DNA of 64,000 nucleotides from Nitrospirota bacterium (GTDB taxonomy: Bacteria; Nitrospirota; UBA9217), in NCBI GenBank assembly GCA_963663225.1, contig OY760142.1, forward strand, positions 948,333 to 1,012,332. Reading direction: 5' to 3'. Made by a program: the position numbers and the translations under genes. This document shows positions 28,105-29,664 of this stretch, one piece after another; the first letter of the stretch is position 1, and every line of letters starts with the position of its first letter. The notes beneath the pieces are model-generated. The model ran no database searches. It saw nothing but the letters and a program-made list of their open reading frames with translations, and was not told where the DNA came from.

Positions 28105-29664
28105 CTACAGCTGTTTTTTGTTTCTGATTCCGTTGTATTTTTTGTCTGCGAACATTACCACGCACGAAATCAGGACCGCGCCTACAAGCAGACTGATTGA
28201 AGCAAGCATGTTGTTCAGAAGCGCGGGCCGGAGCAGAAGAACCGTTCCCAGGCCGAGCATCATCATTCCGGAGACCAGCTTCAGTACGCGGCCCTGGCGT
28301 TCCGTCAATTGCTTTTTACCCAAGGTATGCGTGAAGATGATTACGATGACCGCCAGCGGTATGATGTAGATGAGGTTATAGAGCATCAGATAACAATAAT
28401 AGATGGAGAGCGGCAGCTGGTTCAGAGTAAGAATCCGGGTGAAGACCATGGGGAACCCGGCGGTGCAGAGCAATTCATACGAATTGGCGACAATGGCAAG
28501 CACCGCTGAACCGACTATCATCGATGCAACGGATGTGGAACGCATCAGTTTTCGCATGCGATCGAACAGCTTCGGCTTCGCACTGTCGGGGATGGTGAGC
28601 GACACGTCCGTTTTGAACGAAAAAAAATCCTTGATATTGATTGCGGCAATGAGTATCGAGACGATTCCTGCTATGGCTGTGATGAGCGCAACCTGTCCCA
28701 TGACCAGAAAAAGATTCAGCCACGCGGCCATGAACACAAAGTAGATGAATCCGGAAAAAAAGACGAAGATGCCGCCGATGAACAGCATGCGTGTTCTGGA
28801 CCGCGCGTGCACCAGAAGGCCGAGTAGGGCGAACAGGACAAAAAACGCGCAGGGATTGAAGCTGTCGAGCCCTGCAATCACGATCGTCATGACCGGCAGC
28901 GACATCCCGGCGGGATCAAACCTGCCGAGAAACGGGATATCGATGAGCTCTCCTCTTCCGCCGGTTGAATTCGCGTCCGGTTTCACCGCGGTTCCGGCAG
29001 AGGGAGATGTTGCTGCGTTCATATTGGATTTTCGCGCGGCGGTTTTCGGAGCCGGTTCGGCTGCAGCCGATGGGCGGACAGCCTGTTCTTGCAAGGAGGC
29101 CAGCGGATCCGGACAGCCTGAGGCCGAGCACTTTTTTATCAGGTCAAGCAATTCAGTTTTCATCGTGTTTGAAAAACCCACGAATGCCTTGCTGCCGATG
29201 AACGTGACGGGAACACCACTCGGGGTTAATCCGTATTTTCCCGCCAGCCGGTTCAGCAATGCGGCATTGTTCCGGTCATACCAGACCTCATATAACTTGA
29301 CCCTCATCGATGGATACTGTCTTCCGATTTCCTTCAAAAAATCTTTTTCATCCGCACAGTGAGGACATCCATCTCCCCAGAATAAGATGATTGTAAAAGG
29401 CTTCAATGAACCCGCGGCGGTTGATAGTTTTTTTTGTGAAATTGTCGATCCGGAAGAAGCGGCCGGGCTGCCTGTCTCCGCGCCCGGCAATGCAGGCGGA
29501 GGAGGGCAGTTTTCCGGCGCGTCCGGGAGTGGAAGCAATGGCTGCTGCACTGTTGAAACAGGGCTGTTTTGCATAGGCTGCGGGGCAGCCTCGGCCCCCC
29601 AAACCGGCACTGTTGAAAAAAACGCCAGCATAAACCAGGCCGGAACCGCGGTCATTGTTTTCAC
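28105..29664 (-). CDS. exported thioredoxin-domain protein fused to a CcdA/DsbD-type transmembrane thiol:disulfide electron-transfer domain
   Basis: Signal peptide, Pro/Ala-rich linkers, thioredoxin CxxC (WGDGCPHC), then a CcdA-like membrane core (IAGLDSFNPCAF...). The GTG start overlaps the sufB-like stop (GTGA), and a GAAGGGGA RBS is present. Confidence 0.8.
   Translation of the reverse strand: MKTMTAVPAWFMLAFFSTVPVWGAEAAPQPMQNSPVSTVQQPLLPLPDAPENCPPPPALPGAETGSPAASSGSTISQKKLSTAAGSLKPFTIILFWGDGCPHCADEKDFLKEIGRQYPSMRVKLYEVWYDRNNAALLNRLAGKYGLTPSGVPVTFIGSKAFVGFSNTMKTELLDLIKKCSASGCPDPLASLQEQAVRPSAAAEPAPKTAARKSNMNAATSPSAGTAVKPDANSTGGRGELIDIPFLGRFDPAGMSLPVMTIVIAGLDSFNPCAFFVLFALLGLLVHARSRTRMLFIGGIFVFFSGFIYFVFMAAWLNLFLVMGQVALITAIAGIVSILIAAINIKDFFSFKTDVSLTIPDSAKPKLFDRMRKLMRSTSVASMIVGSAVLAIVANSYELLCTAGFPMVFTRILTLNQLPLSIYYCYLMLYNLIYIIPLAVIVIIFTHTLGKKQLTERQGRVLKLVSGMMMLGLGTVLLLRPALLNNMLASISLLVGAVLISCVVMFADKKYNGIRNKKQL

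Follow-up and report, generated by a model that had tools for sequence, protein, structure and literature searches.

A fused thioredoxin-membrane protein encoded upstream of hgcAB in a Nitrospirota bacterium represents a large, highly conserved family with a possible role in transmembrane thiol exchange

A 64,000-nt stretch of DNA from a Nitrospirota bacterium (GTDB lineage UBA9217; contig OY760142.1, positions 948,333 to 1,012,332), hereafter the window, was analyzed around an open reading frame (ORF) at 28105..29664 on the minus strand. It encodes a 519-residue protein in which a thioredoxin (Trx)-type domain is joined to a polytopic membrane domain, and which we call the Trx-membrane protein. 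The family to which it belongs is large, unstudied and very highly conserved, with a membrane domain that no existing model describes. The function we favor, tentatively, is that of a transmembrane thiol relay of the DsbD/Scs kind, which would service thiols outside the cytoplasm when thiophilic metal(loid)s cause stress. The gene lies immediately upstream of hgcA, as an earlier, sequence-only reading of this DNA had noted, although the spacing is 11 nt and not the 12 given there. Its TAG stop is followed by these 11 nt (GAAAGGCATGT), in which GGAAAGG is a likely ribosome-binding site, and then by the hgcA ATG at 28093. At the other end, the gene starts with GTG at 29664, within a GTGA that also contains the TGA stop of the SufBD-like gene upstream.

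The downstream hgcA-hgcB pair is bona fide, with both products scoring above the cut-offs of their NCBIfam equivalog models. The hgcA product (26939..28093, minus strand) is a corrinoid protein that matches NF040863 with 394 bits against a cut-off of 275 and carries the cap helix motif NVWCAAGKGTFG, which fits the pattern tested, N(V/I)WCA(A/G)GK. The hgcB product (26640..26954, minus strand) is a 2x[4Fe-4S] ferredoxin that matches NF040864 with 117 bits against a cut-off of 99 and ends in ...SCCG, in keeping with the C-terminal CC sought for HgcB. The likely start of hgcB is M5 at 26942, which would create an ATGA overlap with the hgcA stop.

Upstream, the genes form a single string on the minus strand with ArsR at its head, in the order arsR-acr3-...-sufC-like-sufBD-like-Trx-membrane gene-hgcA-hgcB. 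The ArsR repressor (34242..34610) has a GEVCVCDL metalloid site, and the gene at the orthologous position in locus L081, that of the closest relative, matches HTH_5/HTH_20. It overlaps by 4 nt the gene for an ACR3-type arsenite carrier (33163..34245; PF01758, 204 bits), which is 88% identical to the ACR3 of the hgcA locus L094. Next come an F420_oxidored/P5C-reductase-like NADP oxidoreductase (32227..33009; PF03807, E 6e-15) and a metallophosphoesterase (31397..32113; PF12850, E 1e-25) found at the equivalent position in L081 and L083. These are followed by a SufC-like ABC ATPase (30589..31317; PF00005; TIGR01978 at 170 bits against a cut-off of 213) and a divergent SufB/D-fold protein (29661..30653; PF01458, E 2.5e-19) whose scores against the SufB, SufD and SmsB NCBIfam models fall far under their cut-offs. 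Two sigma-70-like promoter candidates (34645..34725, minus strand), each with 10/12 matches, are located in the 238-nt gap that precedes arsR. Both are consensus matches only, and the regional total of such sites is not above the shuffle expectation.

The string ending in Trx-membrane gene-hgcA-hgcB is repeated on the contigs of proteins 95% and 86% identical to the window's, with the 11-nt spacing to hgcA conserved. The contig of the 95% relative also carries arsP, a DUF2703 gene and a Thioredoxin_3 gene; that of the 86% relative has arsP and Thioredoxin_3 and no DUF2703. Given the junction overlaps, the short spacing and this repetition, the ORF is a real gene that very probably shares a transcript with its neighbors and is coupled to them in translation. 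It would thus be expressed together with acr3 and hgcAB from an operon that is presumably controlled by ArsR. The operon of L081 differs in content, with arsP between acr3 and the reductase-like gene, and DUF2703 and Thioredoxin_3 ahead of arsR (L081 3344..6596). The window (34242..34848) has none of these three, so that the reductase-like gene directly follows acr3 and arsR is preceded by the gap. MarR, QueG-like/HEAT Fe-S and abhydrolase genes further upstream are shared in synteny between the window and L081.

The Trx-membrane protein begins with a signal-peptide-like N-terminus (MKTMTAVPAWFMLAFFSTVPVWG/AEA; start codon and residues 1-23, 29596..29664), a reading of the sequence to which the AlphaFold model adds a helix at residues 7-17. 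Two low-complexity linkers flank the Trx-type domain. Linker 1 (residues 24-88, 29401..29595) is rich in Pro, Ala and Ser (20%, 15% and 14%), and linker 2 (residues 197-240, 28945..29076) is rich in Ala (25%). Both have a model confidence (predicted local distance difference test, pLDDT) below 50 and are predicted to be disordered. Linker lengths range across the family from 1 to 193 residues for linker 1 and from 11 to 162 for linker 2, and the window protein is at the long end. Many relatives have a Cys pair in linker 1, of which the window protein retains the single Cys53.

Between the linkers, residues 89-196 (29077..29400) adopt a Trx/glutaredoxin-type fold in the model. Residues ~84-198 are predicted with pLDDT >90 as a beta-alpha-beta-alpha-beta-beta-alpha unit. 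The GCPHC motif occupies residues 99-103, with C100-P-H-C103 (nt 29356..29367) opening helix 1 (101-116), and CPHC is kept in 66/73 relatives. A predicted cis-Pro loop, G-V151-P152-V-T-F, stands directly before strand 3 (153-156), and P152 is present in 76/76 sequences of our conservation alignment, drawn from 75 species-level genomes of bacteria and archaea. Most relatives also keep a second Cys pair, C179-x4-C184. In Foldseek, many thioredoxins and one glutaredoxin matched the domain at probability 1.0, with TM(target) scores of 0.5-0.63. Among 64 relatives, Pfam models for Glutaredoxin matched 57 (best E 1.5e-10), Thioredoxin_2 matched 44 and DSBA matched 23, the last weakly; the window protein itself reaches 15.6-17.9 bits against PF00462 (Glutaredoxin), under the cut-off of 22.9. 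A profile of the 64 family sequences found the Grx1 structure 3lgc in the PDB at E 3e-4, along with structures of DsbA and ResA, and ScsC-type structures are among its weak matches. On the evidence of model confidence, fold matches and profile matches, the N-terminal CPHC domain is therefore a genuine thioredoxin fold. The sequence-only reading had described the signal peptide, the GCPHC motif, both linkers and a periplasmic thioredoxin fold within this ORF, and in all of these it agrees with our results. As for membership in the DsbA family, the CPHC motif is there, whereas the model shows a ~105-residue Grx-type fold without an insert between strand 3 and helix 3.

The remainder of the protein (residues 241-519, 28108..28944, minus strand) forms a seven-helix membrane domain in the model. 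Transmembrane helix 1 (TM1) is broken at D267-S-F-N-P-C272 (Cys codon 28849..28851) and TM4 at N394-S-Y-E397-L-L-C400-T-A-G-F-P (Cys codon 28465..28467). Across the family these regions reduce to the motifs D-x-x-N-P-C and E-L-L-C-T. Residues D267, N270, P271, C272, C400 and T401 are invariant in all 76 aligned sequences, and E397 is present in 75. A cytoplasmic loop of about 30 residues (343-375; INIKDFF...DRMRKL) is almost invariant as well. The loops between model helices hold 21 Lys and Arg residues on the side that follows TM1, TM3, TM5 and TM7 and 1 on the opposite side, and therefore the Trx domain is placed outside, with TM1 and TM4 antiparallel and both Cys in mid-membrane. Since many relatives stop after six helices, the core has six.

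The sequence-only reading had assigned this part to a DsbD/CcdA core. As a statement of family membership, this is not supported by any of the standard searches. The membrane half of the window protein has no Pfam match even at E=10 and no NCBIfam match. DsbD_TM (PF02683) and DsbD_2 (PF13386) match none of 64 close and 92 divergent relatives (156 scanned) at E<=1, while genuine CcdA neighbors score 36-88 bits with the same tools. Sequence and profile searches of the PDB returned Trx-fold matches only, none of them to the membrane part. Foldseek against the PDB likewise found only Trx for the full model; for the membrane domain alone, the best match had an E-value of 0.36, with TM scores <=0.3.

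What the membrane domain does share with CcdA is a design: TM1 and TM4, which are antiparallel, are both broken and carry one Cys each, near a Pro. Aligned by hhalign with six true CcdA sequences, the domain was weakly colinear from end to end across 202 columns, and both Cys fell in register. The score of 23.5 compares with 14.8 +/- 2.6 for 200 column shuffles, 1 of which reached it, though this control is lenient because shuffling destroys the TM pattern too; by standard criteria the alignment (P 0.017-0.024, hhalign probability 2-3%) is not significant. An hhalign comparison of TM1-3 with TM4-6 detected no internal 3+3 repeat. A second signal comes from the 92 divergent relatives, of which 6 match SfLAP (best E 1.2e-7) and 3 match LysE (best E 5e-4). 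The LysE-clan match of relative P0227, at 20.6 bits, is under the curated cut-off of 35, and the window protein itself has no LysE-clan match. LysE, SfLAP and DsbD presumably belong to one Pfam clan, and the two signals point weakly to a wider LysE/DsbD-type superfamily. Since there is no match to a hidden Markov model (HMM), a PDB sequence or a Foldseek target, and only these superfamily signals, we regard the membrane domain as a family of its own, built on the DsbD design and distinct from CcdA.

The family is widespread. In a word-indexed search, the clusters at 90% identity numbered over 6,300, which is a lower bound. With the membrane domain alone as query, an exhaustive phmmer search yielded 2,741 clusters (50% identity) at E<=1e-3, of which 500 reached E<=1e-30, and nearly all of the matches listed have an N-terminal extension of 100-390 residues. 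A scan of GTDB species found members in at least 595, in both bacteria and archaea. Bacterial carriers include Nitrospirota, Geobacter/Geomonas, Clostridia, Chloroflexota, Planctomycetota and many Gammaproteobacteria (Shewanella, Ferrimonas marina, Thiocapsa marina), and archaeal carriers include Methanosarcinales, Altiarchaeota and Woesearchaeota. A tblastn search of 72,556 plasmids gave no match to the Trx-membrane protein. Database entries name the members 'hypothetical', 'glutaredoxin' or 'thiol-disulfide isomerase', and no description of the family was found in the literature on hgcAB neighborhoods, on CcdA/Trx in ars operons or on Trx-membrane fusions.

The position of the gene had led the sequence-only reading to propose a functional tie to hgcAB. 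We compared 80 family loci with 10-kb flanks and, from the other side, 80 metagenomic hgcA loci (HgcA 41-67% identical), 40 of them with more than 1.5 kb of upstream sequence. An hgcA lies within 10 kb in two of the family loci: in L017 it is convergent and 3 kb away, and in L033 (Geobacter) the order is hgcBA <-> arsR-Trx-membrane gene-Trx-CcdA...ArsR-ArsC-ACR3. None of the 80 hgcA loci carries the family. Adjacency to hgcA is therefore a lineage-specific feature, and the tie to mercury methylation is local rather than general. A conserved hgcAB accessory gene was rejected on these counts, and with it the proposed tie as a conserved feature. In the same 80 hgcA loci, ACR3 is present in 18 and an ArsR-like gene in 23; the link between hgcAB and arsenic genes has been published before (McDaniel et al., 2020, PMC7438021).

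Two CC pairs stand in an N-terminal extension of the window HgcA (…DESCCAAPAPKTCCSTE…; 27980..28093, minus strand). A CU/CC extension of HgcA has been described (Haft & Gwadz, bioRxiv 10.1101/2022.07.06.499078), of which the window HgcA has the non-selenoprotein form. At L017 (13473..14468) and L033 (7800..8933), the tblastn match to HgcA extends upstream of the longest ORF, and hgcA there may contain an in-frame UGA for selenocysteine.

The two hgcA loci closest to the window's carry separate Trx and CcdA genes upstream of hgcA, in the same operon and with other genes between. L103 reads ArsP-ArsR-Trx-CcdA-NifX-like-(96 aa)-HgcA-HgcB-ACR3-metallophosphoesterase-DsbA-like-VKOR, and L094 reads ArsP-ArsR-ACR3-Trx-CcdA-SufC-like-SufBD-like-DUF4405-(multi-TM + DsbA-like fusion)-HgcA-HgcB. 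The fused Trx-membrane protein of the window occupies the place that these loci give to separate thiol-redox genes. This is the best support for the 'miniature DsbD' proposed from the sequence, a description that is supported as to the exported CxxC domain and the TM1/TM4 Cys design and not supported as to CcdA/DsbD membership. The parallel can alternatively be explained by common membership of ars islands.

Thiol-redox membrane modules also occur at other hgcAB loci. A DsbD-superfamily membrane protein is encoded within ~1.5 kb of hgcAB in 6/80 hgcA loci; these include verified DsbD-family genes within ~1.3 kb in L134 (3651..4346) and L141 (1..603) and divergent CcdA-like genes directly upstream of hgcA in L130 (3..344) and L150 (2524..3225). 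The modules take the form of secreted Trx with CcdA, VKOR with a DsbA-like protein (fused in L094), or divergent CcdA-like proteins, the first two being found at L094 3153..7890 and at L103 6052..7196 and 11702..12848. Some of the CcdA-like proteins have a vicinal CC in TM1 ('SACCALP', 'LCCNPIFP') and Cys-rich partner ORFs. No description of such modules was found in the hgcAB-neighborhood literature that we searched.

Among the 80 family loci, no universal partner gene was found. The ars genes recur, lying within 10 kb in 18/80 loci. In Thermodesulfovibrionales (L001, L003, L004, L005, L011), the family gene (~10001..11460) is followed after 0-47 nt by an arsC of the low-molecular-weight-phosphatase type, with no ACR3 within 10 kb, and L005 adds arsR upstream. 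This layout resembles arsR-pump-arsC, as if the Trx-membrane protein stood in the place of the pump. Genuine CcdA, with or without a secreted Trx, is in one string with the family gene in L014, L031 and L033 and nearby in L006 and L008. The locus of a 59% identical relative, L085, combines several of these elements as DUF2703-Trx_3-ArsR-Trx-Trx-CcdA-Trx-membrane gene-NifX-like-FmdE-ArsD-ArsA-CDF. The presence of CcdA/Trx genes in ars operons was noted earlier (Castillo & Saier, 2010, PMC2963123).

Other lineages surround the gene with different partners. In archaeal loci (L015, L018, L037, L041, L043, L047, L055, L062), a gene for a membrane-anchored winged helix-turn-helix protein (DUF7343) lies upstream and a lipoylatable GcvH-like gene lies 11 nt downstream, often with genes for an AhpD-like (CMD) protein, a pyridine-nucleotide disulfide reductase and YeeE/YedE-type sulfur transport beyond. 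From its gene content, the GcvH/AhpD-like/disulfide reductase set looks like a cytoplasmic dithiol-donor set. In Shewanella saliphila (L079 8084..13526), the order is CDF <- CpxP-like <- / Trx-membrane gene -> CpxR -> CpxA, and the histidine kinase recurs in 13 gammaproteobacterial loci, which suggests that these family genes may belong to a Cpx-type envelope-stress regulon. A 63% identical relative (L084) sits in a CDF-Trx-membrane gene-DsbC-like-CcmE string, and CDF carriers adjoin the family gene in L079, L084 and L085. What these neighbors have in common is thiol chemistry of the envelope and stress from thiophilic metal(loid)s, rather than mercury methylation as such.

Several further associations touch the family and its locus. 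A relative of 757 aa, P0134, continues from the membrane domain into a full ZnuA periplasmic metal-binding domain (PF01297, 246 bits), which may reflect either a real fusion or two genes merged by the gene caller. The SufC-like and SufBD-like pair of the window (29661..31317, minus strand) recurs directly downstream of the family gene in L009 (11402..13052), L044 (3381..5034) and L046 (2199..3891), so that the three-gene module is present, with permuted order, in at least 4 lineages; a distant pair lies upstream of hgcA in L094 (4558..6217). Possible roles for the pair are Fe-S supply for HgcB or that of a cytoplasmic partner of the membrane protein. The metallophosphoesterase (as copies 65-68% identical) and the F420_oxidored/P5CR-like gene (window 31397..33009) recur by hgcAB/ACR3 or by the family gene in L091, L096, L103, L142 and L002. 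Elsewhere in the window, a DsbC-like ORF at 46724..47338 (plus strand) shares 37% identity with the DsbC-like gene next after the 63% relative in L084. Proteins of the DsbC type depend on a membrane reductant, and the 64-kb window contains no CcdA or DsbD. Rfam and tRNA scans gave no match near the Trx-membrane gene. They identified a 6S RNA (101 bits) and four tRNA genes (Asp, Val, Gln, Glu) that are unrelated to it (63284..63465, plus strand; 6947..7132, minus strand; 54537..54748, plus strand).

In the thiol relay that we tentatively favor, the exported CPHC domain on its flexible tether would work together with C272 and C400 of the 6(+1)-helix LysE/DsbD-like membrane domain, much as in a fused ScsC/ScsB or a minimal DsbD. 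A cytoplasmic dithiol donor, perhaps thioredoxin in bacteria and a lipoyl-GcvH/AhpD-like system in the archaeal loci, would reduce the C272/C400 pair from the inside. The pair would then open to the outside and exchange with the tethered CPHC domain, which in turn would keep protein thiols outside the cytoplasm working under attack by As(III), Hg(II), Cu or Cd. Of this picture, our analysis shows how the N-domain folds, how the protein crosses the membrane, which residues are invariant, how the operon is laid out and in which contexts the gene occurs; the donor, the clients, the way in which electrons flow and control by ArsR are inferences. The relay is supported by the conservation of the CxxC and cis-Pro across bacteria and archaea, the Lys/Arg topology, the colinear CcdA alignment and the SfLAP/LysE matches. 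It is further supported by Trx and CcdA upstream of hgcA in L103 and L094, the archaeal dithiol-donor genes, the placement between cpxP and cpxRA, the DsbC-like and CcmE genes by the 63% relative, and the record of CcdA/Trx in ars operons (PMC2963123).

Known systems provide partial precedents for such a relay. Like DsbD/CcdA, the Trx-membrane protein has a polytopic core of 3+3 type, one Cys in TM1 and one in TM4 beside a Pro in a broken helix, and an extracytoplasmic Trx-fold CxxC domain coupled to it; the weak, non-significant profile alignment is colinear and keeps both Cys in register. Unlike DsbD/CcdA, it has no HMM or Foldseek match to them, D-x-x-N-P-C and E-L-L-C-T-A-G-F-P in place of their PCxxP, invariant acidic residues by the Cys, an extra seventh helix, and an N-terminal Trx domain with a DsbA-like CPHC; it also often coexists with a true CcdA in one operon. 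ScsB-ScsC, which acts in copper stress, and DipZ, a CcdA-Trx fusion of Mycobacterium, both pair or fuse a two-Cys membrane reductase with an exported Trx-fold protein. Scs has been linked to thiophilic-metal stress and to Cpx regulation, which may be compared with the cpxP-gene-cpxRA arrangement in Shewanella. The membrane parts of ScsB and DipZ are bona fide DsbD-family domains, unlike that of the Trx-membrane protein, and their domain order and active-site motif differ.

Several points weigh against a thiol relay. The membrane domain found no DsbD-family match in 156 relatives, in the PDB searches or by Foldseek, and its hhalign match to CcdA is not significant, as detailed above. Genuine CcdA and secreted Trx are often encoded in the same operon (L014, L031, L033, L085) or nearby (L006, L008), next to which a second relay looks redundant. 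The combination of CPHC with Val-cisPro is the signature of DsbA, an oxidant, and is unusual for a reductive pathway. Finally, the invariant D267 and E397 beside the Cys have no counterpart in CcdA and look like cation ligands. The CcdA/Trx coexistence, the DsbA-like site and the Asp/Glu pair also feed the main rival explanation.

This rival, which we regard as somewhat unlikely, is a thiol-lined metal(loid) translocator or hand-off device that would apply the logic of MerP/MerT to a LysE-superfamily scaffold; our estimate for it includes a small share for an Hg-specific role. The outer CPHC and the extra Cys pairs would bind As(III), Hg(II), Cd or Zn and pass the ion to a D267/N270/C272/E397/C400 site and on to the other side. 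Such a device would make sense of the invariant acidic and Cys motifs in TM1 and TM4, since paired TM1/TM4 motifs are a trait of LysE-superfamily metal carriers that the family motifs resemble, and of the divergent relatives that match SfLAP/LysE rather than DsbD. SfLAP/Sap (PF11139) and LysE (PF01810) are the only Pfam membrane models that any member matches, and they share an equal-sized 6-TM core, although those families have neither the Trx fusion nor the invariant Cys pair. A translocator would also suit the ars genes within 10 kb, the adjacent CDF genes and the ZnuA fusion, and the co-occurrence of CcdA and Trx is easier to explain if they keep the outer thiols of the Trx-membrane protein reduced.

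One genomic argument for a translocator, the (arsR)-gene-arsC layout without ACR3 within 10 kb, in which the family gene takes the place of the pump in a canonical ars operon, comes from one clade with shared synteny and so amounts to about one evolutionary event. Elsewhere, dedicated ACR3/ArsP pumps co-occur with the family gene (the window, L031, L033, L081). The comparison with MerP-MerT extends to the logic of a periplasmic CxxC binder, an intramembrane Cys and a cytoplasmic Cys pair, and to the genomic link with a mercury-transforming enzyme; it does not extend to an HMA fold, to a vicinal CC (TM1 has a single Cys) or to sequence, as no MerT, MerP or HMA similarity was found in the Pfam, NCBIfam and PDB sequence searches, and the family lies mostly away from mercury genes. 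Strict conservation of the cis-Pro and CxxC in a Trx fold is characteristic of redox catalysis. Moreover, it is hard to see what efflux would gain from an outward dithiol sink, or an ars operon from import. In its boldest form, which we consider improbable, the Trx-membrane protein would represent a new class of thiol-based metal(loid) translocator in which CPHC captures Hg(II) or As(III), the intramembrane Asp/Asn/Cys-Glu/Cys site carries the ion and, in this lineage, delivery is made to the HgcA extension or the HgcB CC tail.

Equally improbable, or slightly more so, is a dedicated accessory of mercury methylation that takes up Hg(II)-thiol or exports methylmercury, with Hg handed to the Cys-rich extension of HgcA or the CC tail of HgcB. 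The one-operon arrangement and its 11-nt spacing, kept in the 95% and 86% relatives, the hgcA genes of L017 and L033, the CC...CC extension of the window HgcA, and the DsbD-superfamily proteins near hgcAB in 6/80 loci, some with a vicinal CC in TM1, all speak for such a role. They have to be set against the absence of the family from all 80 hgcA loci, its spread over at least 595 species that include organisms not known as methylators (Shewanella, Ferrimonas, Thiocapsa), and the fact that shared ars-island membership would explain the adjacency.

We give a similarly low likelihood to an oxidative machine of the DsbA/DsbB or VKOR-Trx kind, in which CPHC would oxidize exported proteins and be re-oxidized through the membrane domain. 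CPHC and Val-cisPro as in the active site of DsbA, and the Cpx regulon context in Shewanella, are in line with this, as is the general plan of a membrane redox partner fused or adjacent to a DsbA-like CxxC domain, which is seen directly upstream of hgcA as the multi-TM + DsbA-like fusion of L094 and as separate VKOR and DsbA-like genes in L103. Against it, the ~105-residue Grx-type domain lacks the helical insert of DsbA, and the membrane fold and Cys pattern differ, with a single Cys in each of two helices instead of the two Cys pairs and quinone-site CxxC of DsbB/VKOR. The Pfam search of the membrane part matched no membrane model, VKOR and DsbB included. L026 holds both a family gene and a homolog of the TM-DsbA fusion, so that the former does not replace the latter, and the strong conservation of the loop on the inner side suggests a partner in the cytoplasm.

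An ordinary cytochrome c maturation CcdA fused to its thioredoxin partner is very unlikely and was rejected, because for all the likeness of the two-Cys TM1/TM4 design and the DsbC-like and CcmE genes beside one 63% relative, none of the 156 members matched DsbD_TM/DsbD_2, genuine CcdA stands beside the family gene in several loci, and the 64-kb window has no ccm, res, ccdA or VKOR genes and no CXXCH-rich ORFs, its only related gene being the DsbC-like ORF at 46724-47338. The sequence-only reading had named such a gene as its own refutation, and on this evidence that outcome did not arise.

The route by which Hg(II) reaches HgcAB and the reason for the placement of hgcAB in ArsR/ars neighborhoods are questions for which the Trx-membrane protein provides a concrete membrane candidate, with named residues for testing (C100/C103, C272, C400, D267 and E397). 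If it were a translocator that delivers the ion to HgcA or HgcB, it would be the missing uptake and hand-off step of microbial mercury methylation, and the CcdA-like proteins with CC in TM1 that lie by hgcA in other methylators would be analogous devices. Recognition of the family would improve the annotation of 'hypothetical/glutaredoxin' genes in many anaerobes. Whether its members move electrons, as in the thiol relay that we favor, or metal(loid)s, the family would add a new branch to the DsbD/LysE-type membrane proteins.

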